64,000 bases of DNA, taken from contig JALOQM010000002.1 of the NCBI GenBank assembly GCA_025453495.1, forward strand, positions 12,680 to 76,679. The letters run 5' to 3'. The notes beneath the pieces were generated by a model. The model did not search any database. It saw nothing but the letters and a program-made list of their open reading frames with translations, and was not told where the DNA came from. Numbering within the stretch: position 1 is the stretch's first letter; each line of letters begins with the position of its first letter. The position numbers and the translations under genes are program-made. Positions 527 through 55,808 of the stretch are shown in pieces. Origin of the DNA: Minisyncoccota bacterium. Its GTDB lineage: Bacteria; Patescibacteriota; Minisyncoccia; Phycocordibacterales; UBA9973.

Positions 527-1331
527 TTAATCTCTTTCGACAAACCAAGGAGGATCAGAATGCCACTTTTTTTGTCCCCAGAAATATACTGTTGGCATAT
601 CGGGTAGCACAACTTGAAGTTTTAGATCAGAAAACGCATGGAATATATATCCTTTGAACTCATTTTCCAACATTGTCTTTTCAATATCACGCATCGCATA
701 ATATTTTTTGAGCTGCGATACGAGGAACATCTTTTTTGTTTCGGAGAAGTGCGCCCTGTTCAATTTTTCCTCGCTCTGTAATAGCATCCCACCACCCCTG
801 AGGTCTTTTCTGTATATCGTCAGCTATTCTCTCAAAACTGATTCCATATCTATTCCATAAGGTATCAAGGAAAATATATTTGAATCCGTATTGATTGAAT
901 AAGGGAATTATGCTTTCAATATATGAATCTATATATTCCTTTGGATACCCATTATTAATTCCATGCATATTGGCAAATACAAAAGTAAACTCTATGCCTG
1001 ATGTGTAGACAGTTTTAATCTCTTCATTTAATTTACTCAAAAAAACACAGGATGCTTCGTCTGCCTAGTTTCATTCTTCTTTAGGTCCTACACCCCAAAA
1101 GCCAACAAGACGGATAGGTCTTTTTTGTGACACAGTTTCTTCTATAAAGCCATGGATATTCTGGCTGAGATGAGGATTCCCGCGAGTATATTTTCGCTTG
1201 ATCAGAATCTTGTAAGTTTCATCTGGAATGTTAATAGACATATTTTTATAGATAATATAGGCACTTGAGTCATACGATACTTTATCTTCTTGGCGGGCGA
1301 TGAGAAAATCGGTCAGGAGTTCTGCGTTCAT
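527..1331 (-). pseudogene. Degraded gene: three consecutive minus-strand ORF fragments (possible hydrolase-like protein), interrupted by stops and a frameshift
   Basis: ORFs 1071..1331 and 687..1040 share one frame and are separated only by TGA-AAC-TAG. ORF 527..787 overlaps the previous one by 100 nt in another frame. Together they look like one ~270-aa gene broken up. Confidence 0.4.
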
Positions 1332-1435
1332 CGTCGCTCACACATCCTCACGACCCTCGCTCGGTATCTCGCATTGCTATGCTCAATATACCTGCGCTTA
1401 TCGATTCCCTCGGACAAGCGATGCTTGTCCATTGC

Positions 1436-22301: not shown

Positions 22302-22375
22302 TGCCGGTTCGTCTAATGGTAGGACACCGCCCTTTGGAGGCGGGTATTGGGGTTCGAGTCCCTGACCGGCAGCCA
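22302..22375 (+). tRNA. tRNA-Gln (anticodon UUG) with encoded CCA
   Basis: Acceptor TGCCGGT/ACCGGCA (U1-A72), G73 discriminator, anticodon stem CCGCC/GGCGG with loop CTTTGGA, T-loop TTCGAGT, 3' CCA. Confidence 0.8.
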
Positions 22376-22377
22376 GC

Positions 22378-22540
22378 TTGAGCGCTAGTACGAAGTGCTT
22401 CATTTACGGGACTTTACGAATAAAAAGTTTCGAGTCCAGAGAGGGTCAAAATTCAAGAATTTTTGTCTACAGAGTTTTATCCTTTAATCACGGGCTGTTT
22501 TTCATATTTCAGAAAGTTCGAGTCCTTGAAAGGTGTTTTA
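22378..22540 (+). repeat. Repeat F1: ~165-nt tRNA-Gln 3' flank, duplicated at 24553-24709. Contains the 20-nt arm GTTTCGAGTCCAGAGAGGGTC.
   Basis: ~85% identical to 24553-24709 by eye. Holds two further TTCGAGTCC motifs. Confidence 0.7.
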
Positions 22541-22579
22541 TAAGAATTAAATACTAAAAGAGTATGATATAGTTTCTGT

Positions 22580-23623
22580 ATGTTAAAAGCTAAACCGCTT
22601 TATTCTGCCTCGGAAATTCAATCTTCAATCAAAGAAAGGATGCGTCTGTATAGAGTACCCGGAGTAAGTATTTCGTTTATGGACAATGGAAAGCAGACTG
22701 ATGTGGTATATGGGTTTGCCAATCTTAATAAAAAAGAGAAGATGACTGCCTCACATATTTTTCAGGCAGCATCAATCAGTAAACCTATTACCGCATTAGG
22801 GATCGTTATGCTCCATAATTCTCAGTTGATAGACATATATCAACCAGTTAATACTTACCTAAGAAGTTGGAAGTTAAAAACAAAGAAGGGAACACTTTCG
22901 GAAGCGACCATAATCGAGCTTTTGAGCCATTCGGCAGGCATTTCCATTGATGGCTTTTCTGGGTACGAACAAGGAAAGAAATTACCAAAGGAAATAACAA
23001 CTATTCTCGATGGCACATATCCATCAAATACTCCGACAATTATCGAAAACTTTAAGAGGGGTGAATTCCTATATTCAGGGGGAGGTTTTACTGTACTTCA
23101 GAAATTAGTAGAGGAGGTTACGGGTAAGAATTTTTGCGATTTTATGATGAAAGCTGTCTTAATTCCATTCGGTATGAAAAATTCTTTTTACAGCCGTGAT
23201 GCGGTTCGGCGGAAGAAAATTGCAACAGGGTATTGGAGTGAAACTGATCCTGTTGCAAGGGGCTATCATCTTTATCCAGAACTTGCGGCTGCTGGGTTGT
23301 GGACAAATCCATCAGATTTGATGATGCTTATTAAAACTATAAATAAATTATTGAAAAAGAAATCCCTCAATATAGATTTATTATTCAAGCCGATAAAAAA
23401 AGCCCGGCGCGATGCTGTCGGCCTCGGTTTTTTTCTTAATATGGTGGGCAAAGAGGTTGTTGCTGGGCACGATGGTGCAAACGCGGGTTTTAGGAGCAAA
23501 TTCCGCTTCATTGTCGGCAAAAATAAAGCTATTGCAGTCATGACGAACTCAGACGAGGGTTTCCGTTTTATAGATGAGATTGTGTCTGCTTCTGATAAGC
23601 GCTTTGCTAAAACTATTGAATAA
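22580..23623 (+). CDS. Beta-lactamase-family serine hydrolase (PF00144-like, class C-type fold)
   Basis: SxxK motif ASISKP, HSAGIS and YSGGGF...VTGKNF segments, and C-terminal GHDGANAGFRS...VMTNSDEG typical of PF00144. 347 aa. Confidence 0.7.
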   Translation: MLKAKPLYSASEIQSSIKERMRLYRVPGVSISFMDNGKQTDVVYGFANLNKKEKMTASHIFQAASISKPITALGIVMLHNSQLIDIYQPVNTYLRSWKLKTKKGTLSEATIIELLSHSAGISIDGFSGYEQGKKLPKEITTILDGTYPSNTPTIIENFKRGEFLYSGGGFTVLQKLVEEVTGKNFCDFMMKAVLIPFGMKNSFYSRDAVRRKKIATGYWSETDPVARGYHLYPELAAAGLWTNPSDLMMLIKTINKLLKKKSLNIDLLFKPIKKARRDAVGLGFFLNMVGKEVVAGHDGANAGFRSKFRFIVGKNKAIAVMTNSDEGFRFIDEIVSASDKRFAKTIE

Positions 23624-23626
23624 TTC

Positions 23627-24439
23627 ATGGATATAGGTCAAATGCAAAAAATCATAACCTCAGTCGGAGTTGATACATCGGTCTATGTAGAGGATTTTGC
23701 AACTGGCGAAATATTTGATTACAAATCTCAGGAAGTTATGGCTTCTGCAAGTTTGAGAAAAGTTTCCATTCTGATGTCGATGCTTCATCTTATTTCAAAA
23801 GGCATATATGATCTTACTCAGCCTTTTGAAATAGAAAAAGAATATCAAGATAACGATTCTGGAGTATTCCAATTTTTAAAACCCGGCTTCCGCATAATCC
23901 TACAAGACGCTCTAATGATGATGATCGTCATCAGTGATAACACTTGTACTGGAAAAATATGGGACATGATCGGAGCAGAAATGCTTAATGGATATTGTAT
24001 GCATATTGGACTATTGCAAACCGTACATGCCGCTTCACGATCTTCTGAAGAAAATAAGACCTCAGCTTTTGAAGTGTCATATCTGCTTAAAAAGATTCTT
24101 TTAGGTTGCACAAATGAAAATGAAGCTCGGAATCTAGGGGTCACGAAAGAACTTTGCCAAATTGCCTTATCTATTTTAAAGAATCAGCAATTGACTAATG
24201 GACTAAGGGATTTATTGCCCAGAAGCGCAAATGTTGCAAGTAAAACAGGTATGATAGATGGTTATTTCCATGAAGCAGGTATAGTATTCTCAAAAACATT
24301 TACTCCATTAGGCGTTTTGTGTGTTATGACCAAAAATGTGCCACAAACTATAAATGGCGTCCCTGACCATACTGCAATACGAAAATTGATTTCCCGATTG
24401 ACCTTTGAAGGATTAGAGAAGTATGTAGATCAGTTATAA
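23627..24439 (+). CDS. Class A beta-lactamase-family protein
   Basis: SxxK (SLRK), SDN (VISDNTCTG) and KTG (ASKTGMIDG) motifs in class-A order. 270 aa. Confidence 0.6.
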   Translation: MDIGQMQKIITSVGVDTSVYVEDFATGEIFDYKSQEVMASASLRKVSILMSMLHLISKGIYDLTQPFEIEKEYQDNDSGVFQFLKPGFRIILQDALMMMIVISDNTCTGKIWDMIGAEMLNGYCMHIGLLQTVHAASRSSEENKTSAFEVSYLLKKILLGCTNENEARNLGVTKELCQIALSILKNQQLTNGLRDLLPRSANVASKTGMIDGYFHEAGIVFSKTFTPLGVLCVMTKNVPQTINGVPDHTAIRKLISRLTFEGLEKYVDQL

Positions 24440-24444
24440 GACAG

Positions 24445-24709
24445 ACCCTCTCGAGCCGCGAACTCATTTTAATGAAAATTCAAATGAAAAAGTGATGATT
24501 TAAAGGGATAAAATGAAATCGGTTCGAGTCGCAGAGAGGCAGCCAGTTTGAGTGCTAGTACGAAGTGCTTCATTTACGGGACTTTACGAATAAAAAGTTT
24601 CGAGTCCAGAAAGGGTCGAATTTTATAAATTTTCACTCATAGAGTTTTGACCTTTATTGACGGAACATTTTTCATACTTCAGAAATTCGAGTCCATGATC
24701 GGTCTTTTA
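24445..24709 (+). repeat. Repeat E2: inverted arm GACCCTCTCGAG..GAAC, A-rich spacer, tRNA-Gln-3'-like core GGTTCGAGTCGCAGAGAGGCAGCCAGTTTGAG, then a copy of flank F
   Basis: Direct repeat of the tRNA T-loop-to-CCA region plus the downstream flank. Inverted 20-nt arms face each other across the cassette. Confidence 0.7.
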
Positions 24710-24753
24710 GATAATAAAAAACACCCTTGATACTATCTCAGGTGTTTTATTCC

Positions 24754-25125
24754 TCATGCGTTTTTGCAAAAGGAAATTGCGTACCTCCAGCCATGGTCAG
24801 TTGGAACGAATCGAGCTATAGGCGATGGATGTGCTTTATTATTGCAGAAATGCGGATCAATTGATTTGAGCTTTTTGATCGTACTTATACTGATATCCTC
24901 AAATACAAGTATCTTCTGTCCTTCGAAATTGTGACAGTCAGGATAATGTATTCGCACAATGGTAAAACGTCCCACTGTTTGATGTTTCAAGATTTCGAAC
25001 TTATTCGGATTGGGATTCCCAACTGAAAAAGTTTTTTTCTTGCGTCTTACGAAATTCTTTTCTTGGTTCTGTTGATTGAAAAAATTATCATGAGAACAAG
25101 TAGAAAATTTTTTGAACATACCCAT
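24754..25125 (-). CDS. Hypothetical protein
   Basis: 123-aa ORF overlapping the upstream ORF by 79 nt in another frame. Confidence 0.3.
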   Translation of the reverse strand: MGMFKKFSTCSHDNFFNQQNQEKNFVRRKKKTFSVGNPNPNKFEILKHQTVGRFTIVRIHYPDCHNFEGQKILVFEDISISTIKKLKSIDPHFCNNKAHPSPIARFVPTDHGWRYAISFCKNA

Positions 25126-25586
25126 ATCATTCTCCTTTCTTTTAGATTAGTTTGAGTAGAACATAAAGACATCCGCCATGGAGGGTCTGGTCCATTACGA
25201 CGTAGATAATCGTTCCGAATGAAGATTGCTTTTGGTCTGAGCTGTTCATCATTCCGCCTCTCCCAATAAGCTTCATCTATACGTAGGCAATTGACCACCT
25301 GTCTATAATCCAATGAGGGACAAATACCCCCCAAGAGGAAAAGGGGTGAGAAATTACCGGCAAACAGTGCAACTGTGGCGGTATACACCAGAACATGTGC
25401 TGTGCACCAGATAATCCCTTTCATTCCTTTTTGATATTTATTGTTAGTCATCGCGGCATTCTGAAAGAAGAAATCACCGATAAGGTCCCCGAAAACGATA
25501 TTGATCATAAGCTTTTCCATGGTTTCTATTTTTAGTGTTAATGAAGTTTCTGAGTCAATAATAGAGCAGTTGCCATACATATTCAA
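25047..25586 (-). CDS. Hypothetical small membrane protein. The true start may be internal (MEKLMINIV...).
   Basis: Hydrophobic segments present. No family recognised. Confidence 0.3.
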   Translation of the reverse strand: MNMYGNCSIIDSETSLTLKIETMEKLMINIVFGDLIGDFFFQNAAMTNNKYQKGMKGIIWCTAHVLVYTATVALFAGNFSPLFLLGGICPSLDYRQVVNCLRIDEAYWERRNDEQLRPKAIFIRNDYLRRNGPDPPWRMSLCSTQTNLKERRMIWVCSKNFLLVLMIIFSINRTKKRIS

Positions 25587-25588
25587 TT

Positions 25589-26377
25589 ATGTATAATAAT
25601 GACTATACAATCATGCCTAAAGAAGAAATACAAAAAATACTTCAAGAAATCGGATTGCCTTCAGCTGAAATTTCTGTATACATCTCTTTGCTTGATGGCT
25701 TAGATTCAGTAAAAGATATAATAAAAACAACAGGAGAAAAGCGTCCTACTGTGTATTATTCTTTAAACTCTCTTGAAAAAAGAGGGTTGGTCTCAAAAAC
25801 AGGAAAGGAGTATGGAAACAAGTTTCAAGTTGAGCCGCTTGATAAGCTTCTGGAGTTGGTCAACAAGAATATACGGAAACAAAATGAGCTTCTGGAGAAG
25901 ACGAAGCGACTGAAGGATTTCTATCCAAAAAATAAACTTAATAACAAGGTCCTCGTTTCGTATTTTGATAACTTGGAATCCATAAAATCAGCAATATTTT
26001 ATAGTTTATACGGCAAAACTAAAACAATCAGAACTATTGTTCCAGCGAATAATTTTTTTCATGATATGGGAAAAGATTTTGTCGAAGAATATGTTAAAGA
26101 AAAGGTAAAACGAAAGATAGGCACTAAGGCATTATGGGAAGATATACCGAATAAAAAAGCAATTGAGAACTTCTATCTCAATTCTCAAATTAAGCAATTG
26201 CCGGTCGCTATGCATAACAGTTTTGAGACAACTATCTTTATCTATGATGACAAGACATTGTATGTTGCACCAAAGAAAGAAAATCATGCCGTCCTCATTC
26301 AATCCAAAGAACATGCAAAGATGATGACCTCAATTTTTGAAAATTTATGGAGTAATGCCATGGAAATAGAAAAATAG
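25589..26377 (+). CDS. TrmB-family transcriptional regulator
   Basis: N-terminal winged HTH (LQEIGLPSAEISVYISLL...PTVYYSLNSLEKRGLV) and a TrmB C-terminal domain. 262 aa. Confidence 0.6.
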   Translation: MYNNDYTIMPKEEIQKILQEIGLPSAEISVYISLLDGLDSVKDIIKTTGEKRPTVYYSLNSLEKRGLVSKTGKEYGNKFQVEPLDKLLELVNKNIRKQNELLEKTKRLKDFYPKNKLNNKVLVSYFDNLESIKSAIFYSLYGKTKTIRTIVPANNFFHDMGKDFVEEYVKEKVKRKIGTKALWEDIPNKKAIENFYLNSQIKQLPVAMHNSFETTIFIYDDKTLYVAPKKENHAVLIQSKEHAKMMTSIFENLWSNAMEIEK

Positions 26378-26388
26378 TTTTATTTTAT

Positions 26389-26520
26389 AACCCTCTCTGG
26401 ACACGAACCTATTTTTAAGAAAACTCAAATCAAAAAGTCCTGATTTTATTGGCTAAAATCAAAGCGGTTCGAGTTGCAGAGAGGCAGCCAGCTTGAGATA
26501 GGTTCTAGTGACCGAAGAGG
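26389..26520 (+). repeat. Repeat E3: third copy of the inverted arm AACCCTCTCTGGACACGAACC, the homologous A-rich spacer, and the core GGTTCGAGTTGCAGAGAGGCAGCCAGCTTGAG
   Basis: Inverted arm 18/20 identical to 24598-24619. Spacer homologous to 24470-24525. Confidence 0.7.
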
Positions 26521-26530
26521 CTAATTGTAT

Positions 26531-26565
26531 TTAGAAAAACAAAAGCCACCTTTTGAGGGTGGCTT
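26531..26565 (-). terminator. Terminator for the minus-strand membrane protein gene
   Basis: AGCCACC-TTTTGAG-GGTGGCT hairpin with a T-run on the minus strand. Confidence 0.6.
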
Positions 26566-26587
26566 CTCGGAATCATATCCCGAAGAA

Positions 26588-27163
26588 TTACTTTTTCTTT
26601 GCTTCCCGAACAATACCGTCGATAGCAACGAGGGCTGAAAGGATCTGGAAGACTGCGATGATCGGAGAATCTGTCTTGAACATCAAGTAGGTGCATACAC
26701 TGTGACCAATGAGGTACAGGATCCATCCGATGATGTTACTCGCTTTCTTGTCGAAAGCCAAGAACAGGGTTCCAAACAGTGAAGTTACTGCAAAGATGAA
26801 TTGTATCACTACCAGTTGTGCAGTTATTACTTGAACTAACAATAAGACACACACAAACACGGTTACAATGAGTACAATCGCCGTAAACAGCACGTTCCAC
26901 TTTTTCAGCAGATCTTTAATCCGGTTACCGTCTTTCGCGCGCGCGATCAGATAACCGTAAGTCATAAGTACAACAAGTGCGACATCGAGCACTACCATGA
27001 TCCAGAGATTTGCTTTGTGTTGCAATTTCATCTGGAGATAGAAGTACAAGGTAATCACAGCTGCACCGATGATTCCATAGAACCATCCGATAGCCTTCTT
27101 TTTGCGAACATAGTATTTGTTCAGAAAGAGAAGTAGTGCGGAGAAAATCTGAAGAACGAGCAT
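26588..27163 (-). CDS. Hypothetical polytopic membrane protein
   Basis: 191 aa with ~6 TM helices. Confidence 0.45.
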   Translation of the reverse strand: MLVLQIFSALLLFLNKYYVRKKKAIGWFYGIIGAAVITLYFYLQMKLQHKANLWIMVVLDVALVVLMTYGYLIARAKDGNRIKDLLKKWNVLFTAIVLIVTVFVCVLLLVQVITAQLVVIQFIFAVTSLFGTLFLAFDKKASNIIGWILYLIGHSVCTYLMFKTDSPIIAVFQILSALVAIDGIVREAKKK

Positions 27164-27186
27164 GTGGCTGGCTTTTTGGTGAGTTT

Positions 27187-27230
27187 CAGTGAATTACTCT
27201 GGGCTCATAAAAGCACAAAGTAATTCACTG
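27187..27230. repeat. 12-bp perfect inverted repeat CAGTGAATTACT / AGTAATTCACTG with a 20-nt loop
   Basis: Seen directly in the sequence, between the membrane gene start and the DUF45 fragment. Confidence 0.5.
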
Positions 27231-27311
27231 AAAAGCCAGGTTTTGAGTTACTTATTCTGCGTATATAATATCAGAAAATAATAAATTTGTCAATAATCTC
27301 AAGTGTGCTAG

Positions 27312-27638
27312 AATATCAACTACAAGGATGCGGCGCAGGCTCTTGCGGAGAAGAAGATTGCGAAGTTTAACAAGGTCTACAAGTTCAAGTTCAACAAGGT
27401 AAGTATCAAGAACCAGAAGACACGTTGGGGCAGCTGTTCGAAGAGGGGAAATCTCAACTTCAACTACAAGATCGCACTCCTCCCTGAGAAGCTTGCTGAG
27501 TATGTTGTAGTGCATGAGCTCTGCCACCTTGGGCAGTTCAATCACTCGCAAAAGTTCTGGAATCTTGTTGCAAAAACAATGCCTGACTATTTGGACATCA
27601 AAGAGGAGCTAAAGAGGAGTGGACTTCGGTTTCATTAG
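27312..27638 (+). pseudogene. 5'-truncated fragment of a YgjP/DUF45-family zinc metallohydrolase (C-terminal ~108 aa only, no start codon)
   Basis: In-frame translation ...TRWGSCSKRGNLNFNYKIALLPEKLAEYVVVHELCHL...FW has an HExxH motif. An in-frame TAG sits immediately upstream and there is no ATG. Local GC looks higher than the neighbours. Confidence 0.55.
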
Positions 27639-27661
27639 GAGTTGATAAGCAAATTACACAT

Positions 27662-28285
27662 TTGAATACTTTTATGAAAATATCAAATAATTACGAGGAT
27701 AATACTCTTATAAAAAATTCGGTCGTTGATCCGAACCTTTATGAAGATGTGTATAAAAAGTACGCAGATAAAGTGTTCAATTATTTCTGGTATCGTACTG
27801 GTCATGATAAGTCTCTTTCAGAAGATTTGATGCAAGAGACATTTCTTAGAGCTTTCGAACGAAGAGAGAAATACAAGGCACAAGGATATTCATATCTGAC
27901 ATATCTCCTTACGATTGCCCACAACCTTCTTGTTGACCATTACCGAAAACCAAAGAGCGTGCCTGTAGAAGGTTTAGATACAGACGCTATTCCTTTTGAA
28001 ATTACGGAAGACATTGAGAAAAAATATGATGCCGAGGCGCTATGGAGAGCTGTCCAAGCTTTACCACAGCAAAACAGGGATACCCTCCTTATGTTCTACC
28101 AAGAAGATATGCCTGTTCGGGATATCGCAAAGGTTATGAACACCAGCGAAAACGCCATAAAGCTCAGCCTGTCGCGCACTCGAAAAAAACTTTCAGAGCA
28201 CCCATATCTTCAAGATATTGCCTTATTTGCGGATACCAAGAGGAAATATACAAAACCTCGATTTTCTGGGAAGAAAGCACCCTAG
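27662..28285 (+). CDS. ECF-type sigma-70 family RNA polymerase sigma factor
   Basis: Region 2 (FLRAFERREKY...LLTIAHNLLVDHYRK) and region 4 (VRDIAKVMNTSENAIKLSLSRTRKKL). 207 aa. Confidence 0.75.
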   Translation: MNTFMKISNNYEDNTLIKNSVVDPNLYEDVYKKYADKVFNYFWYRTGHDKSLSEDLMQETFLRAFERREKYKAQGYSYLTYLLTIAHNLLVDHYRKPKSVPVEGLDTDAIPFEITEDIEKKYDAEALWRAVQALPQQNRDTLLMFYQEDMPVRDIAKVMNTSENAIKLSLSRTRKKLSEHPYLQDIALFADTKRKYTKPRFSGKKAP

Positions 28286-28493
28286 ACACCTTTTGTCGTT
28301 TTCTCCGTTAAATATGGTGTAGACGGAGTGTTCGGCCGTCGCTAAGCAGAATAAAGCTTATATATGACTTTAGTAAGGCATGAATTACATGATGCTTGGC
28401 TGAAGAAATTTATTCGTTCGATTTCTGATGCCACTTAGCATCTCCAAACAATTGAATAGTGTGAGTAGATAATCTCGCGAAAGCGAAAGTCCA

Positions 28494-28555
28494 GAGGACA
28501 AATGTCCTCTACGGCCAAAGAGGTAACCAAAAGGCATCTTTGGTTTTTTGTGAGA
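28494..28555 (+). promoter_or_regulatory. Perfect 18-bp palindrome AGAGGACAAATGTCCTCT followed by a terminator-like hairpin (CCAAAAGGCATCTTTGG + T6) upstream of hsp20
   Basis: Both structures seen directly. Candidate operator plus attenuator, or the 3' end of a small RNA. Confidence 0.3.
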
Positions 28556-28620
28556 AGTATAGACTCCTTGTGTAGGTCGAATACAGAAAGACATTATCAG
28601 AAGTTAATCGTTTAGTTGTC

Positions 28621-29124
28621 ATGAAACACGAAATCCAAAAAAGAGATGATGATTCTCAGGCTCTTTCAAGGCACGATGACTTCGCCAGCCCCTTCTCTCT
28701 CATCAACCGATTCTTCGACGACTCATGGGATCCGTTCACTATGATGACACCGAGCCTATTTAGAAACCACGGGCTTGGTAATGTATCGACGGTATTCCCG
28801 AAAGTTGATGTCAAAGAAACGGACAAGGAAATCGTGGTAACAGCGAATGTGCCAGGTCTGTATCCAAAAGACATCAATGTCGAGGTTGGCGATGACTACC
28901 TTTCGCTGTCAGGAAAAGTAGAGAGAGAAAACAAAGAAGATAAGAAAGGCAAAGTCTACCGTTGTGAGAGAGAATGCGGAGAATTCAGGCGAGAATTTTC
29001 TCTTCCGACTCGGGTGAAAAAGGATGCGATTGTGGCAAAGTCGAAGAACGGAGTCCTCACAATCACTCTCCCAAAATCTGAAGAGGGAATGAAAAAACGT
29101 GTCAAGATAGAGGTTGAGAACTAA
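28621..29124 (+). CDS. Hsp20/alpha-crystallin small heat-shock protein
   Basis: ACD core: VDVKETDKEIVVTANVPG...GVLTITLPK. Confidence 0.8.
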   Translation: MKHEIQKRDDDSQALSRHDDFASPFSLINRFFDDSWDPFTMMTPSLFRNHGLGNVSTVFPKVDVKETDKEIVVTANVPGLYPKDINVEVGDDYLSLSGKVERENKEDKKGKVYRCERECGEFRREFSLPTRVKKDAIVAKSKNGVLTITLPKSEEGMKKRVKIEVEN

Positions 29125-29128
29125 CCTC

Positions 29129-29166
29129 GAAACCCCGCACTTTCAATTGATACGGGGTTTTGGTGT
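29129..29166 (+). terminator. Terminator after hsp20
   Basis: AAACCCCG...CGGGGTTT hairpin with a downstream T-run. Confidence 0.55.
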
Positions 29167-29220
29167 TGGTTTTTCATACTCAATTATTAAAAGTGTCATT
29201 AATCACAATATAAAGTAACT

Positions 29221-29511
29221 ATGAAAAGTATCAAACCGATTGGAAACAAAGTATTAGTGGAACTTTTGAAAGTATCGAATACAACCGAATCAGGCTTTAT
29301 TCTTTCGAGTGAGGATAAAACGGAACAGCAGAAAGGAAAGGTGCTAGATGTTGGAGTCGGGTATGGTGAAGAGAAAGAACTTATGTCGAGCGTGAAGGAG
29401 GGTGACGTAGTCTTCTTCTCGCGGTATGGAGGCGAAGATATCAAAGACTCTACAGGAGAAGTGATTCAGAAAATTATTGGTATCAAAGATATTTTTGCGG
29501 TCGAAAAGTAA
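29221..29511 (+). CDS. groES: Co-chaperonin GroES
   Basis: 96 aa, IKPIGNKVLVE...mobile loop...VVFFSRYGG. Confidence 0.9.
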   Translation: MKSIKPIGNKVLVELLKVSNTTESGFILSSEDKTEQQKGKVLDVGVGYGEEKELMSSVKEGDVVFFSRYGGEDIKDSTGEVIQKIIGIKDIFAVEK

Positions 29512-29548
29512 TATTACTCATATATCTAATCAAAATAAACACAAAACT

Positions 29549-31162
29549 ATGGCAAAAAAGAAAATCGTGTACGGCCCTGAAGCCAGAAAAGCTATTCAGG
29601 AAGGAGTGAATGCTGTTGTGAATGCTGTGAAGACATCCTATGGACCAGTTGGAAGAACTACTGTCATTGGACAGTCGTATGGAGATCCAACGGTCACTAA
29701 TGATGGCGTAACAATTGCTAAAGCAGTAGAGCTTGATGGGGTCGAACAAATGGGCGTGAAGCTGGTTCAGCAAGCGGCAAACAAGACAAATGAGGAAGCT
29801 GGTGATGGTACGACACTCACTACCATTCTCACTGGCGCAATAATCAACGAAGGCATAAAAGTAGTAGAAGCTGGAGCCGATCCTGTAAAGATTAAGTCTG
29901 GCATAAACAAGGCAGTATCATTTGCAAAAGAAGAGCTGCAGAAAATCACGGTACCTGTGAAGACAAAAGAAGATCGCAAGAATGTTGCATATATTTCGAG
30001 CCGATCGGAAAAAGTTTCTGATATCATTGCCGACATCTTGGAAGAAGTTGGTACCGATGGTGTGGTAACGATTCAAAATGGCGACACTAACTCGATTGAG
30101 AAGGAAGTGACGACAGGTATGCAGTTCGATAAGGGTTACAAGTCGCCGTATTTTGTGACTGATAACGTGAAGATGGAGGCAGTGGTTGAGAATCCCTATG
30201 TCCTTATCACTGACAGAAAGGTGTCTGCTGTATCCGATGTTGTGGGAGTCATTGAGGCTGTGGCGAAGTCTGGCAAGAAGGATCTCGTTATCATTGCTGA
30301 CGATATTGACGGAGAAGCCCTTACCACATTCGTTCTCAACAAGATCAGGGGTACCTTCAACATCTACGCAGTCCAGGCCCCTTCGTTTGGCGACAACAAG
30401 AAAGCCATTCTCGAAGACCTCGCTATTCTCACCGGTGCTGAATTCATCAAGTCTGATCTCAATGCTCAACTCAAAGATGTAACTATTGATAAACTCGGCT
30501 CTGCACAGAAAGTCATTATCTCAAAAGACACGACAACCATTGTCGGCGGTGAGGGCGACAAAAAAGAGATTGAAAGTCGAGCTGAGTATCTCCGATCTCT
30601 TATCTCGAAGGCAACTGCTGATTATGAAAAAGAGAAGCTTTCTGAGCGCTTGGCGAAAATTAAGGGAGGCGTCGGCGTGATCAAGGTCGGGGCGTCATCC
30701 GAAGTTGAAATGAAGGAACTCAAGTTTATTGTCGAGGATGCGCTCAATGCCACAAAAGCAGCTATCGCGGAGGGTGTGGTTCCTGGTGGTGCATCGACAC
30801 TCGTTCGCTTGTCTCATAAATTGTCTTCTCTCAAGGCTGAGAACGACGATGAAAAAATTGGTATCTCAATAATTGAGAAAGCATTCATGATGCCGTTTAG
30901 GGCCATGGCTGAAAACTCAGGTATGTATGATGTTGCTATTGCTATACATGATATCGTTGGGGGTGCAAAGACGGGTTTCGATTTCCGAACCATGAAGTCC
31001 GTAGAGGACATGCTGGAAAAAGGAATCATCGATCCGAAGATGGTGCTTCGAGAAGCTATCGACAATGCATCATCAGTTGCTTCGTCAATCATTACCACTC
31101 AGGTGGTGATATGTGAGGAGGAGAAAGCAGAGAAAGGCAATCATCTGCACGATCTCGACTAA
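29549..31162 (+). CDS. groEL: Chaperonin GroEL
   Basis: MAKKKIVYGPEARKAI...GDGTTLTT... Start taken at the internal Met (the track ORF starts at 29477). Confidence 0.9.
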   Translation: MAKKKIVYGPEARKAIQEGVNAVVNAVKTSYGPVGRTTVIGQSYGDPTVTNDGVTIAKAVELDGVEQMGVKLVQQAANKTNEEAGDGTTLTTILTGAIINEGIKVVEAGADPVKIKSGINKAVSFAKEELQKITVPVKTKEDRKNVAYISSRSEKVSDIIADILEEVGTDGVVTIQNGDTNSIEKEVTTGMQFDKGYKSPYFVTDNVKMEAVVENPYVLITDRKVSAVSDVVGVIEAVAKSGKKDLVIIADDIDGEALTTFVLNKIRGTFNIYAVQAPSFGDNKKAILEDLAILTGAEFIKSDLNAQLKDVTIDKLGSAQKVIISKDTTTIVGGEGDKKEIESRAEYLRSLISKATADYEKEKLSERLAKIKGGVGVIKVGASSEVEMKELKFIVEDALNATKAAIAEGVVPGGASTLVRLSHKLSSLKAENDDEKIGISIIEKAFMMPFRAMAENSGMYDVAIAIHDIVGGAKTGFDFRTMKSVEDMLEKGIIDPKMVLREAIDNASSVASSIITTQVVICEEEKAEKGNHLHDLD

Positions 31163-31187
31163 TTATTAGTTAATTGTTTTAAAAATC

Positions 31188-31592
31188 ATGACAACAGATT
31201 GGAAAAACAAACTGAAGGATTGGTTCAATGGGTCAAATCTAGTACTAATCATACTTCTTGCTGTTAGCATTCTTGCAAACGGATACCTTCTGTATCAAAT
31301 GAAAGATAACGGCAAGAAATTGGCATCACAAAATATTCGTACTCTTACCACTCAAAACCTAGACGGCTCTAGTGTTGCGACCATTGAGTCTCCATATGGA
31401 GTGAGAAACGAGGTGTATTCCAAATATGAGGATGGAAAATGGAAAACATACTCAACCTCTACTCCGATTACGGAAACTGAAGTAAAAGAGATGAGAGCCA
31501 CCATCAATGCCCGGCATAAAGCTCTGATGGACTATTTCAGAAAACAGGATGAGCTCATGAACCAATTCTGGAGTTCGTTCTACGGATTCTAA
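31188..31592 (+). CDS. Hypothetical membrane-anchored protein
   Basis: 134 aa with an N-terminal TM helix. Confidence 0.4.
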   Translation: MTTDWKNKLKDWFNGSNLVLIILLAVSILANGYLLYQMKDNGKKLASQNIRTLTTQNLDGSSVATIESPYGVRNEVYSKYEDGKWKTYSTSTPITETEVKEMRATINARHKALMDYFRKQDELMNQFWSSFYGF

Positions 31593-31630
31593 AACAGACA
31601 GCACTCACAATGTGAGTGCTGTCTGTTTTA
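31591..31630 (+). terminator. Strong rho-independent terminator
   Basis: Perfect 18-bp stem AAAACAGACAGCACTCACA-ATG-TGAGTGCTGTCTGTTTT. Confidence 0.75.
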
Positions 31631-31649
31631 GTCAGGTCAAGAATATTCC

Positions 31650-31760
31650 GAATCTGCTGAGCCGTCAGAGACTCGAACTAAAAATTTAGACAATTTCAAA
31701 AATCTAAGTATATATTTAGATCCATATTATTTAAAAATGTTCGAGTCGAATATCCACAGC
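31650..31760. repeat. Relic of the tRNA-Gln-3'-derived repeat family: inverted pair GAGACTCGAAC ... GTTCGAGTCGAA
   Basis: The reverse complement of 31656-31678 reads GTTCGAGTCTCTGACGGCTCAGC, close to the tRNA-Gln 3' end GTTCGAGTCCCTGACCGGCAGCC. 31739-31755 resembles the E2/E3 core. Confidence 0.45.
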
Positions 31761-32037
31761 AAAGTCTTACTAGTATGATATGTCAACGGAACCCAGGCGC
31801 TCGAGATTATTAGAAAGATTGACTTCGTCGAAAAGCGGCTAATGATTTCATTTATCAATGAAAGTAGTTTTATTACAAGAAAAAATACTGATTCAATCAT
31901 AGGAGCTGTGTATTTTGATTTTGACTGCAGAGAGATTCTTCCGCAGCATCCTTGCCTGACTCTAAAACTATTCAAGTAATTGTACGATCTATGCTGGGAG
32001 CTCGACGCAAAGCTGATATAATTGTACTATATAGCCT

Positions 32038-33540
32038 ATGCACGAAAACCTGCCCAAAAAGTTAGACGATTCCAAAGAGTATATAGATACTGAGCTTGAG
32101 AGTGTCAAAAGTCCTGAAAAAAGGAAATATCTAGAAAAGATGTATTTAGATATTGCGGAAATAGTTGCATCAATAGATGCGGAGGCAAAAGAAACACACA
32201 CTGAAGATAGTGTTGTGTATAAAAAAAGACGTAATGCTCTTGATGAAGCACAAGTAATTATTCATGGAATTGTAGCTCCACACAAGAAAGTTGAATCACT
32301 TGCGTCAAATAAAATTATGGTTTCCTATTCTAGAAGAAATGAAGAATGGGCTCGTATTTTGCATCTTGCACTTAGAAAAATGGGCATGGATGTGTGGTTT
32401 GATAATCAAGAGACAAACGTCACTTCGGATGAAGCAGAAGATGGGTATGAAGAACGTGGTGGCGGTCTTGATTTTGGAAATGAATTAGATACATCTATAC
32501 ATGAACAAAGAGGTATCGGTATTGGAAATGAATGGAAAGAATCGATAAATAATGGAATCTCTGAAAATGGGCATGCTGTGGTACTCCTTACGCATGATGT
32601 ACTTGATAAATTTGATGTTATTGGTGGTCAAGAAATTCCTAAAATGATAGAAAAAAATACATCGATTGTTGTTGCTTGTGTTGATAATCCACAAAGGGGA
32701 TCAGTCTTTGAGCGGCTTAAAAAATTTACTCAAGAAAATGAGACACACAAAAAGTATCGAAATTCTATCGAAGTATTGTCAAAGGCGCCACGTGTCGCTC
32801 TTTCGGAAGGAGACTTTACCGCCCCAAAAAGCAACTTAGGTGAAAAAATTGTCGAATCAATTCCTGTAACTGATGCAGATGCAGTCATGACACCTCAAGA
32901 CAATGGTACTCCTGCACAAAGTAGCAACATTCTAGAGTCTATAGATATACTAAAAGAACATGTATCAGAAGATGATTCATACAAAGGACAAGTACAGAAA
33001 CGTGCGTTGGAAGAGTGTCAAATAATTATAAAAAGTCAAACTGATCCAAAGAAACTCGTTGCCAGAAAACATTTGCGATCTCAGTTCTTTCATTATCCAA
33101 AGAGGCAATTGCGCACTCCAGATATATACGACCAAGTGAGTGCCACTTTCGAAGATATGGGTTTGTGGAAAGAAGATACGCAACAAGAAGGTGGATATAC
33201 ACTTTTGCCACTTACTAAAGAAAAAATGAATGATTATACAGCGAGTTTTGTTAGTAATTTTTCTGAATTTGTAGATTCGGATACTCTATGGATTTTAGTA
33301 GGAGAACCAGGCTTTTTTGATTCGCTAAATGAAGTCCTTGAAAAAGCGATACAAGAAAGAGATGTGCTAAAAAAGGGACAAGATACTCGCAAGATAGATG
33401 AGATGCTAAAAAAAATTGCTATTTTAGAAAAATTCAAAAAAACACAAGGACTTTTTGTCAGCGACAATGATCTAAAAAATCCCAAAGGTCTCGCTTCGTA
33501 CTTACTGATGAAACAAGCTCTTTCTGAAGTAAAAAAATAG
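32038..33540 (+). CDS. TIR-domain-containing protein: N-terminal coiled coil, TIR-like core ~aa 95-240, C-terminal ~260 aa of unknown function
   Basis: IMVSYSRRNEEWARILHLALRKMGMDVWFDNQE...AVVLLTHDVLDKF matches the TIR box1-to-alphaC pattern (xSYS..D..W...L...G..VW.D). 500 aa. Confidence 0.55.
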   Translation: MHENLPKKLDDSKEYIDTELESVKSPEKRKYLEKMYLDIAEIVASIDAEAKETHTEDSVVYKKRRNALDEAQVIIHGIVAPHKKVESLASNKIMVSYSRRNEEWARILHLALRKMGMDVWFDNQETNVTSDEAEDGYEERGGGLDFGNELDTSIHEQRGIGIGNEWKESINNGISENGHAVVLLTHDVLDKFDVIGGQEIPKMIEKNTSIVVACVDNPQRGSVFERLKKFTQENETHKKYRNSIEVLSKAPRVALSEGDFTAPKSNLGEKIVESIPVTDADAVMTPQDNGTPAQSSNILESIDILKEHVSEDDSYKGQVQKRALEECQIIIKSQTDPKKLVARKHLRSQFFHYPKRQLRTPDIYDQVSATFEDMGLWKEDTQQEGGYTLLPLTKEKMNDYTASFVSNFSEFVDSDTLWILVGEPGFFDSLNEVLEKAIQERDVLKKGQDTRKIDEMLKKIAILEKFKKTQGLFVSDNDLKNPKGLASYLLMKQALSEVKK

Positions 33541-51066: not shown

Positions 51067-51141
51067 GGCCCTATCGTCTAACGGTTAGGACGGAAGCTTC
51101 TCAAGCTTCAAATCGGGGTTCGATTCCCCGTAGGGTCACCA
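51067..51141 (+). tRNA. tRNA-Glu (anticodon CUC) with encoded CCA
   Basis: Acceptor GGCCCTA/TAGGGTC, anticodon stem GAAGC/GCTTC with loop TTCTCAA, T-loop GGTTCGATTCC, 3' ACCA. Confidence 0.8.
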
Positions 51142-55173: not shown

Positions 55174-55713
55174 TTATTTTAAAAATATTTTTTTGCTCAG
55201 TAATACAATTCCGGTCTTTAGGCATCGTAAAAATTCTCGCTTCTCATACATCGACCCCTCAATCAAAATAAACTTCGCATAGTTGCGTATGTCGATATCT
55301 TTCACCGCAATAGGAGTTTTTGTTCCTAACAACATCTGCTCAAACTTCTTAAACCGTTGAACTTCTGCCGTGATCTTCTCCCTCATGGGTACAGTTTGTA
55401 TTTCCAGATCGTCCATGAGGTCTTGAAGTTGTGCCACCAAGTCTTCTTCGTTTATGAATCCGCACGGACAGTCCTGATCTCTCGTTCTAGTACATTTGTA
55501 ATAAACATAGCGGTTCACGTTGCCATTCTTCTGATGTTTGAATTTCTCATCAGCGGTGATGCCTGATCCGCATAGTCCGCAGGTCATAATCTTGGTGAAA
55601 GCGAACTCTTTCTGTGACGATCTTGGCTCTAGCGTTTGGCTCTTTATCTTTTCTTGAACGAGATCAAAAAGTTCTTTGGTGATGATTGGTTCGCGGGCAC
55701 CGTCATGCGCTTA
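55174..55713 (-). pseudogene. 5'-truncated large serine recombinase (integrase). Only the C-terminal linker, recombinase zinc beta-ribbon and coiled coil remain.
   Basis: In-frame translation AHDGAREPIITKELFDLVQEKIKSQ...KEFAFTKIMTCGLCGSGITADEKF...NRYVYYKCTRTRDQDCPCGF matches the Zn-ribbon recombinase domain of large serine recombinases. The frame opens straight after a TAA at 55714-55716, and there is no room for the ~300-aa catalytic N-terminus before the next gene. Confidence 0.65.
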
Positions 55714-55808
55714 TAATTTCTCCACCTGGGTCAAACAGTCGGCTATCTTCGCGACCCAAATGGCTTCTTAGTAGAGATATGCACAAAGATACAGTAAAAG
55801 CTGTTTTA

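Follow-up and report, generated by a model that had tools for sequence, protein, structure and literature searches.

Tandem elements parted by partial copies of a tRNA gene have been described, as have cis-mobilizable elements (CIMEs) that keep attL and attR but have lost their integrase (PMC5704250; bioRxiv 10.1101/2020.12.28.424599). In this work we analyzed a stretch of 64,000 nucleotides (the window, to which all coordinates refer unless the locus of a relative is named) from a Minisyncoccota bacterium of the Patescibacteria, or candidate phyla radiation (CPR), namely positions 12,680 to 76,679 of contig JALOQM010000002.1 in assembly GCA_025453495.1. At 22302-26520 two units of about 2 kb stand in tandem at the 3' end of a tRNA-Gln gene, and their arms are homologous, over about 160 nt on the left and about 76 nt on the right. 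We give about an even chance to the reading that in this array two mini-elements of the CIME type, both lacking an integrase, accreted in tandem by site-specific recombination, with the crossover in the block GGCAGCCAGYTTGAG. Tandem accretion is an already known pattern; what is unusual here is the very small size of the units, the CPR host and the hairpin-like boundaries. Patescibacteria have tiny genomes, few mobile elements are to our knowledge on record for them, and the routes by which they gain genes are largely unknown. Stacked 2-kb packages without a recombinase suggest that classical accretion at tRNA ends operates in these bacteria in miniature, with a foreign-looking cargo of cell-wall-type hydrolases and phage-family "morons". 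If the boundaries are functional sites, they would define a helper-dependent class of elements and give a handle for finding the helper recombinase.

The tRNA junction is called J0 here, the middle junction J1 and the distal junction J2. Right flank 1 together with core 1 makes up module M1, right flank 2 together with core 2 makes up module M2, and a further module at 31655-31765 is called U31; L-numbers (for example L008) denote the loci of relatives. The parts of the array are the following.

22302..22375, + strand: tRNA-Gln(UUG) with encoded CCA, the anchor of the array (J0), found by ARAGORN and by the Rfam tRNA model (55.7 bits)
22351..22382, + strand: core copy 0, from the T-loop of the tRNA to CCA plus GCTTGAG, with the proposed crossover block GGCAGCCAGCTTGAG at 22368-22382 (three-junction alignment)
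22376..22540, + strand: left flank 1, P'-arm-like (direct repeats)
24444..24520, + strand: right flank 1, P-arm-like, an inverted arm at 24444-24464 followed by an A/T-rich spacer of ~56 nt with two small hairpins (direct and inverted repeat, fold, alignment)
24521..24552, + strand: core copy 1 (J1), a pseudo tRNA-Gln 3' end with CCA, GGTTCGAGTCGCAGAGAGGCAGCCAGTTTGAG
24553..24709, + strand: left flank 2, the homolog of left flank 1, with arm 1 at 24597-24617 and arm 2 at 24684-24705
26389..26465, + strand: right flank 2, an inverted arm at 26389-26409 (18/21 identical to arm 1) and an A/T-rich spacer
26466..26497, + strand: core copy 2 (J2) (sequence match, alignment)

Alignment of the window against itself confirmed both the direct and the inverted repeats that an initial annotation of this DNA had reported. 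The segment 22351-22515 matches 24521-24685 over 165 nt with 84% identity and the match continues to 22540/24709 at 81%, so that the proposed duplication of the tRNA flank (22378-22540 at 24553-24709) holds; on the other side of the core 24445-24552 matches 26390-26497 over 108 nt with 81% identity. Within the left flanks a block of 57 nt is identical (22384-22440 = 24554-24610). The 32-nt core GGTTCGAGTYGCAGAGAGGCAGCCAGYTTGAG is present at 24521-24552 and 26466-26497, with a chance expectation of 0, and here the earlier claim of direct repeats of the T-loop-to-CCA segment was right in substance, but its coordinates (24525-24556 and 26468-26499) were 2-4 nt off. Compared with the copy in the tRNA (22351-22382), the pseudo-cores have GGTTCGAGT and GGCAGCCAGCTTGAG in common with it and differ by 4 (J1) or 5 (J2) mismatches, all of which fall at core positions 10-19 and show the same variant in both pseudo-cores. 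The core is thus a mosaic in which the universal T-loop GGTTCGAGT and the 15-nt identity block GGCAGCCAGYTTGAG (G73-CCA and 7-8 nt of trailer), present in all three copies, are shared with the tRNA. The pseudo-cores end in A72-G73-CCA, like tRNA-Gln, and pairing with the 5' half of the resident tRNA is impossible.

Left flank 1 contains a hairpin (22380-22401), an anti-T-arm segment (TACGGGACTTTACGAATA, 22405-22422), arm 1 (22427-22447) and arm 2 (22515-22536), the last identical to the 3' end of the resident tRNA-Gln at 15/22 positions. The arm GTTTCGAGTCCAGAGAGGGTC occurs at 22427-22447 and 24597-24617 (20/21, chance expectation 0), and its inverted copies lie at 26389-26409 (18/21) and 24444-24464 (15/21). 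All of the T-loop-like 20-mers keep the tRNA register of loop 7, T-stem 5 and acceptor 7. A left flank follows core copies 0 and 1, a remnant of ~20 nt resembling the start of the left flank follows copy 2 (26498-26520), and a right flank precedes copies 1 and 2 only. At J0 the tRNA takes the place of the inverted arm and at J2 no arm stands 3' of the core; the order of inverted arm, spacer, core and arm that was ascribed to every junction is therefore complete at J1 only. Beyond the remnant at J2 the sequence is unrelated, and then comes a terminator shared with a convergent pnuC-like gene. The motif TTCGAGTC, said to occur at least 9 times, was counted 8 times against 2.5 expected, with 6/8 sites within the junctions and the remaining two at 31670(-) and 31740(+). 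Arm-like 20-mers were found in the array only, and the sole other T-loop-like pair in the 64 kb is that of U31. Scanning for promoters and terminators showed no excess at the junctions and no junction role.

Arm 1 of the left flank (TTCGAGTCCAGAGAGGGTCA, 22427-22447) resembles the 3' end of the tRNA-Glu of the window (TTCGATTCCCCGTAGGGTCA, 51119-51141) at least as well as that of tRNA-Gln, the two having acceptors GAGGGTC and TAGGGTC and alike a discriminator A. Judging from this likeness, an att site in a gene like that of tRNA-Glu might be the ancestor of the arms. The arms need not be recombinase sites; instead they may be partial tRNA ends left as fossils, or belong to a structured tRNA-trailer element.

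In the accretion reading, the segment from 22.3 to 26.5 kb would be a composite islet, the 3' end of tRNA-Gln having received two site-specific insertions in succession. In each case the unit would have been a small circle with an attachment region of ~266 nt, consisting of the right flank, the pseudo-tRNA 3' end (core) and the left flank, and would have recombined with the tRNA 3' end most likely inside the 15-nt block. The expected products are a left flank behind an intact tRNA, a complete hybrid site between the units, and a right flank with core at the distal end, and the distribution of left and right flanks is indeed the one expected for attL, hybrid att and attR when two circles have been taken in by recombination at the core. 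The crossover is placed in the 3' block because this block is shared and the mid-core differences are alike in both pseudo-cores; the clustering of these differences fits a pseudo-T-arm that is part of the element and a 3' block that is the crossover region. The tRNA was left intact (55.7 bits) and the block of identity reaches just past its 3' end, as is the case for tRNA-targeting integrative elements. No integrase of its own stands beside the att site, as it would in an integrase-mediated element of this kind. Since neither unit has a recombinase, they would be either decayed elements or non-autonomous ones that carry cargo only and could move, like CIMEs, only with an integrase provided in trans. 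We infer in this way a circular intermediate, the position of the crossover and mobility, past or present. The most economical explanation of the array is that small elements without an integrase accreted in tandem at the 3' end of a tRNA.

The array shares with the CIMEs of streptococcal islands of integrative and conjugative or integrative and mobilizable elements (ICEs and IMEs) that its units lie within attL/attR-type direct repeats of the target 3' end, lack genes for integration and transfer and stand in tandem with a hybrid att (PMC5704250). Three core copies are in direct orientation, copy 0 being within tRNA-Gln, and the cargo encodes neither recombinase nor relaxase. Unlike CIMEs, the units are only ~2 kb long, no related ICE, IME or integrase is known, and the att region is long (~266 nt) and holds several tRNA-3'-like 20-mers in both orientations. 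The host, moreover, is a CPR bacterium, and conjugative elements are not expected in these. The tycheposon islands of Prochlorococcus offer another parallel, in that the full-length tRNA is proximal, the elements are parted only by partial tRNA copies, and degenerate remnants come deeper in, with further partial tRNAs (bioRxiv 10.1101/2020.12.28.424599). However, the genes of tycheposons include one for a tyrosine recombinase and, as a rule, a replication module (bioRxiv 10.1101/2020.12.28.424599), whereas the array has neither, and its partial tRNA copies are accompanied by inverted ones.

It is also conceivable that no site-specific system was at work, and that the 3' part of tRNA-Gln with its trailer was duplicated locally, or by unequal homologous recombination, while the genes came separately. 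The repeat of ~190 nt that includes part of the tRNA, and the identical block of 57 nt within it, are such as gene conversion or homologous exchange leaves; some 20 nt of left-flank-like sequence are kept at J2, and the region is rearranged even in L043, the closest relative found, which is collinear from 28285 only. Nonetheless, no left flank other than those ~20 nt follows copy 2 and no right flank precedes copy 0, which a crossover in the core fits better; the differences between tRNA and pseudo-cores are clustered and not scattered, and the two cargos are mutually unrelated and foreign-looking. With 81-84% identity the flanks are diverged homologs and no fresh duplication. We therefore regard such a duplication as rather unlikely.

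The initial annotation compared the junctions to attP or attC sites and the units to integron cassettes. In an active integron-like platform the junction hairpins would be attC-like single-strand sites, the tRNA 3' end would serve as attI and a recombinase encoded elsewhere would reshuffle the cassettes. Each cargo does end in an imperfect hairpin site of ~100 nt, within the size range of attC, and integrase-less arrays, the clusters of attC sites lacking integron-integrases (CALINs), are known for integrons (PMC11389934); like these, the array has no integrase and its cargo units end in an imperfect inverted-repeat site that can form a hairpin. The likeness does not extend to the attC boxes or to the cassette architecture. 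The arms end in CGCGAAC / CACGAAC and GTTCGAG, and of the R''/R' consensus RYYYAAC/GTTRRRY they share only AAC...GTT. Integron cassettes are mostly single ORFs without a promoter and all in one orientation, whereas those of the array hold several genes on both strands, one of them with a promoter-like site of its own; nothing in an integron cassette corresponds to the conserved left flank of 160 nt; a tRNA end takes the place of attI as anchor; and the Pfam tables covering the 64-kb window list no IntI-type tyrosine recombinase. With no polymorphism in the sample and no other copies found, we consider an integron-like platform quite doubtful.

The pdif/Xer modules of Acinetobacter plasmids and MITEs (miniature transposable elements with inverted repeats) are likewise small units without a recombinase, bounded by inverted repeats and using an enzyme encoded elsewhere. 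The array differs in that inspection by eye revealed no dif-like 28-mer, that its inverted arms match only imperfectly (15-18 of 21), and that the boundaries of the units are set by direct repeats of the tRNA end instead of inverted repeats. MITEs are short, non-coding and present in many copies, with a target-site duplication; the units carry 2-3 genes, and no target-site duplication was seen at the arm ends.

Several observations weigh against accretion by a site-specific recombinase. No cognate integrase, for which the initial annotation had suggested a search, was found in the 64-kb window, the one relic there being a large serine recombinase in truncated form at ~55174-55760 (-), 29 kb from the array. 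The pseudo-core, unable to pair with the 5' half of the tRNA, could stem from a foreign tRNA-Gln or from an element-specific sequence. The T-loop-like 20-mers of the arms, in both orientations, are atypical as arm-type integrase sites. U31 stands at a distance of 5 kb beyond the array, and the sigma-groES-groEL block that precedes it belongs to the core genome of relatives. The core pattern had no match in viral and metagenome contigs and the arm pattern none in viral and species-representative genome contigs, which count for little, the exact-match scans having missed the source contig as well; the proposed search for further copies thus gave no second copy in viral, metagenome or genome collections. 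One other assembly carrying the organism showed neither excision nor an empty site, a Logan unitig runs unbroken through J2, and the variation in cassette content that had been looked for did not appear in that assembly. When the whole region was submitted to BLAST, only the tRNA was matched in phage records and nothing in plasmid records. There is no evidence of present-day mobility of the units.

The truncated serine recombinase retains the Zn_ribbon_recom domain and a coiled-coil part only (phrog_95 integrase, E = 5.5e-5) and lacks the N-terminal catalytic domain. Some 4 kb separate it from tRNA-Glu (51067-51141), downstream of which it stands, and a gene for a 1275-aa PIN-TPR-GreABC protein lies in between. 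It may be what is left of another tRNA-anchored element; the 3' end of tRNA-Glu was not found repeated.

A mis-join of the assembly across the 57-nt repeat, with cargo 1 for example being a separate circle of 2.17 kb, would also produce a tandem array. The window is part of the 178-kb contig Ga0392395_0000068 of the Joint Genome Institute (JGI) metagenome 3300037462, from a metagenome-assembled genome labeled by NCBI, on the proteins of the source contig, as 'Candidatus Pacebacteria'. Two Logan unitigs (run SRR12684587) are identical to the window at 22411-24583 and 24581-32455 (100%), and the 57-nt repeat is the only place where they break. Unitig L002 (k=31, 2173 bp) starts and ends inside the repeat, a topology compatible with a circle, and it was considered as a circular form of cassette 1 and rejected, as its ends are at the positions in the 57-nt repeat where a k=31 unitig has to stop; such break points are exactly those expected of a linear tandem array and give no evidence of a circle. 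Furthermore, the repeat copies can be told apart on both sides within read length, the 178-kb contig resolves them, and the second, independent unitig crosses J2 unbroken. An assembly artefact is accordingly very improbable.

The cargo of the two units consists of five genes.

22580..23623, + strand: cargo 1a, a PF00144 serine hydrolase / penicillin-binding-protein (PBP)-like protein of 347 aa (Pfam 2.5e-44)
23627..24439, + strand: cargo 1b, a PF13354 class-A-fold serine hydrolase of 270 aa (Pfam 9.8e-43)
24754..25125, - strand: cargo 2a, 123 aa, of phage family phrog_13501, a family without assigned function (PHROGs 1.6e-29)
25047..25580, - strand: cargo 2b, a membrane protein of 177 aa, phrog_2470, with a weak DUF3307 match
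25589..26377, + strand: cargo 2c, a TrmB-type winged-helix regulator of 262 aa (Pfam PF01978 4.7e-10)

Pfam, PHROGs and NCBIfam showed no domain of a recombinase, integrase, transposase or relaxase in any of the five proteins, in agreement with the earlier statement that the array lacks an integrase. The Pfam families of the two hydrolases are those previously named, but their description as beta-lactamase-family enzymes needs qualification. Cargo 1a scores 61 bits against the NCBIfam class C beta-lactamase model, the cut-off of which is 415, and cargo 1b 46.5 bits against the class A model with a cut-off of 200. Being far under these cut-offs, both are serine-hydrolase/PBP-fold proteins and no demonstrable resistance genes; by this test they share with beta-lactamases a fold family only, and their sequences do not place them among acquired beta-lactamase genes. 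Cargo 2a has no Pfam or NCBIfam match. Cargo 2c has weak PHROG matches to replication-initiator-like winged helix-turn-helix proteins and no sequence relative in the PDB, and the promoter-like site within cargo 2 (11/12) is at 25570-25597. Among 5.8 billion proteins the PF00144 protein has no relative above ~40% identity, so that no sister cassette can be compared by way of cargo homologs; its nearest relatives are longer enzymes, the few organism-named ones coming from Acidobacteria and Bacteroidota. The GC content of the array segment is 0.36-0.39 against ~0.42 for the window. The lack of close PF00144 relatives, the two phage-family proteins and the lower GC give the cargo an acquired, foreign look. 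The genes around the array are housekeeping genes (topA, dprA, serS, dus, holB-like, groES/groEL, mraZ, mur and PBP genes).

Comparison with related genomes, which the initial annotation had proposed, showed that the flank of the tRNA is variable. The nearest genome with the same neighborhood is L008, with 72-74% DNA identity in the flanking genes and 86% in the tRNA region; directly behind a nearly identical tRNA-Gln it has an AAA_15/21 ATPase, a MazG protein and a helicase, without repeats and unrelated to the cargo of the array. L043 is closer (GroEL 95% protein and 84.5% DNA identity) and is collinear from 28285 on (860 in L043), that is, from the end of an extracytoplasmic-function (ECF) sigma gene; all between tRNA-Gln and 28285 is different, including pnuC, a 97-aa gene and the sigma gene, so that the plastic region extends beyond the two cassettes. 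A scan of public genomes and metagenomes with the tRNA body yielded 31 more tRNA-Gln loci of Patescibacteria. What lies 3' of tRNA-Gln in these loci ranges from ordinary genes to a recombinase-like open reading frame (ORF), an IS30-like ORF, a 400-nt insertion and gene-less elements, which marks this position as an insertion hot spot in the phylum. The cassettes of the window were absent from every relative reached.

Some of these loci deserve mention in their own right. In L011 (CAZWKU010000001.1) an ORF of 484 aa, the N-terminus of which (MRYFLYARKSTD...) reads like that of a large serine recombinase, abuts tRNA-Gln with its 3' end, and an ORF that resembles an AAA_15-type ATPase by its N-terminal sequence comes next. 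In L026 (JAKAJJ010000005.1) an ORF with an IS30-like N-terminal sequence lies directly 3' of tRNA-Gln. Most of the sampled tRNA-Gln genes of Patescibacteria do not encode CCA (...CCGGCAG|CAA; loci L008, L010-L028); it is encoded by the tRNA-Gln of the window and by L019, L026, L028 and L029, and the pseudo-cores carry CCA too.

Beyond the array the window holds one more module.

31655..31765, + strand: U31, a third, more diverged module, consisting of GCCGTCAGAGACTCGAAC, a 63-nt A/T-rich stretch and GTTCGAGTCGAATATCCACAGC

The first of these sequences, GCCGTCAGAGACTCGAAC, repeats the 3' end of the resident tRNA-Gln in inverted orientation (~17/19), and the direct copy, GTTCGAGTCGAATATCCACAGC, is decayed. 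U31 has the orientation of M1 and M2 and stands between a conserved groESL-134aa block and a variable pair of TIR_2-like / Por_Secre_tail genes, at the point where synteny with L041 and L008 breaks; L041 has no such module after the homologous gene. As a distal attR of a single island of 22.4-31.8 kb U31 was rejected, given that the sigma-groES-groEL-134aa block is core genome in L041 and L043. With its position behind a conserved block and at the end of synteny, three serial insertions alone do not fit, and rearrangement between modules or independent spread of modules has to be invoked.

The gene-less elements found behind tRNA-Gln turned out to belong to one structured family, here called E, of 140-190 nt, which in Patescibacteria stands directly 3' of genes for tRNA-Gln, -Leu, -Trp and -Ala. 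Behind tRNA-Gln it is present in about 40% of the loci with enough sequence (L012, L013, L018, L020, L022, L024, L036, L039 and L009), and behind about one in four of the other tRNA genes sampled. The copies, in the coordinates of each locus, and the one outside the array in the window, are the following.

L012: 5847-5995 (-) and 975-1070 (+)
L013: 4398-4572
L018: 5070-5264
L020: 4972-5141
L022: 4821-5005
L024: 2548-2727
L036: 558-742
L039: 1532-1713
L009: 428-687
L044: 873-939
1293..1433 of the window, - strand: canonical E behind tRNA-Trp (1434-1505), a comparator outside the array (R1)

The plan of E begins with a hairpin directly after the tRNA, followed by a segment that copies the 5' acceptor strand of the tRNA and/or the complement of its T-stem and T-loop; then comes a conserved core of two hairpins with the motifs GGAGCG, CGAGGYGG(G/T)G(T/C)C, and GTGACC or GAGAAATGTAATCATGG, and finally the 3' end of the tRNA is repeated directly, in most copies without a mismatch over 9-20 nt. 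A covariance model, R1, built from nine copies recovered others that had not been used in training, behind tRNA-Leu (L012), tRNA-Ala (L044) and the tRNA-Trp of the window; the last match spans 1286-1414 (-), with 29.3 bits and E = 1.4e-4 to 3.3e-4. Here the hairpin is followed by GAGGGAATCGA, the complement of the T-arm of tRNA-Trp, by the conserved core and by CTCATCGCCCGC, a 12-nt direct repeat of the tRNA-Trp 3' end, and both of these sequences fit tRNA-Trp and not tRNA-Gln. Wherever E is complete its closing stem fits the local tRNA; the copy behind tRNA-Ala is a partial match without the terminal repeat.

In 12 copies of E, 88.7% of the cells were paired, against 64.5% in shuffles and 39-47% with slid partners, and 21/27 pairs had changes on both sides, although the alignment was fitted to R1 and the pairing figures consequently lean toward structure. 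An excess of G.U (17) over A.C (4) favors a structure on the tRNA-sense strand. No match to E was found in Rfam 15 even at E = 1, and at gathering as well as permissive thresholds only tRNAs were reported in the window and its relatives; relaxed ARAGORN runs gave inconsistent calls. As a group I intron, tmRNA or ribozyme E is not recognised by Rfam, and these identifications were dropped; in Patescibacteria tRNAs the anticodon loop is where group I introns are located, unlike E (PMC13011429). A single match of a pattern for the core of E in a viral contig proved to be a chance match inside a GC-rich coding region. E is a candidate for a new structured RNA family tied to tRNA genes and a more surprising by-product of this work than the array itself. 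Its closing helix, copying as it does the neighboring tRNA, calls for a mechanistic explanation; that it mimics the acceptor/T-arm helix of its own tRNA suggests either a role at the transcript level involving tRNA maturation enzymes or the target-derived end of a small insertion.

The modules of the array resemble E in their layout. M1, M2 and U31 each have first an inverted arm, then an A/T-rich spacer in which small hairpins occur and last a direct arm like the tRNA 3' end, all in the orientation of the tRNA, so that, as in E, an insert of 100-190 nt is closed by inverted and direct copies of the tRNA 3' end, and the arms pair in predicted folds (z = -0.5 for M1, -2.5 for M2 and -3.7 for U31). 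Left flank 1 stands where E would stand and is as long as E; it includes an anti-T-arm segment, and its end copies the 3' end of tRNA-Gln at 15/22 positions, a layout that resembles a decayed E. Unlike E, the junction modules are A/T-rich and without the core motifs GGAGCG, CGAGGYGGGGTCG and GTGACC, and canonical E holds no genes. R1 gave M1 6.2 bits (E = 0.66) and scored M2, U31 and the left flanks lower still; as the model recognises none of the modules, the likeness is architectural, and homology is not demonstrated.

This likeness raises the question whether the modules are members or derivatives of E that act on the incoming transcript, in 3'-end formation, processing by tRNA enzymes or stability, the array then being the outcome of module duplication or spread behind operons of the + strand. 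The pairing, the double-sided changes and the G.U excess on the tRNA-sense strand mark E as a real, structured element, it follows four kinds of tRNA gene with a closing stem that in complete copies fits the local one, and M1, M2 and U31, which share its layout, each lie just 3' of a + strand gene; the left flank, too, has E's place, length and tRNA-end copy. However, R1 misses every module and the left flanks, the fold of M1 is no better than that of shuffles, and neither the foreign cargo between the modules nor the attL/attR-like distribution of the flanks is explained. On balance we find this reading unlikely.

E bears on the integron-like platform as well, inasmuch as its cargo-less copies could be taken for empty units and one of them, in L012, has an ORF-bearing insertion of 400 nt in its terminal repeat. 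A broader and speculative proposal, to which we attach little probability, would make the modules the working sites of a tRNA-anchored cassette system of Patescibacteria, with E as cargo-less and the islets as cargo-bearing units; an enzyme acting in trans, or the tRNA-processing or recombination machinery of the host, would then recognise the single strand once folded into a mimic of the local tRNA's acceptor/T-arm helix.

Two further observations were made on E in relatives. In L036 the 11 nt after the terminal repeat of E (CTCGTAGGGTA) are those that directly follow a near-identical tRNA-Gln in L037 and L040. As an occupied and an empty site, L036 and L037 were downgraded, since the tRNA of L037 is Gln(CUG), the upstream flank is unrelated and only the tRNA and 11 nt downstream are shared; the comparison of L036 with L037 and L040, the sole candidate for an empty site and one of loci that are not demonstrably orthologous, may reflect presence and absence of E or an exchange between tRNA-Gln paralogs. 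In L012 (CAZFAS010000007.1) the nested insertion of ~400 nt, with an ORF of 70 aa, lies inside the terminal repeat of the E behind tRNA-Gln and has flanking GTCCCTGAT direct repeats and internal GTACTGGTCCTGTA repeats, which shows that the duplicated tRNA end of E can itself be an insertion target.

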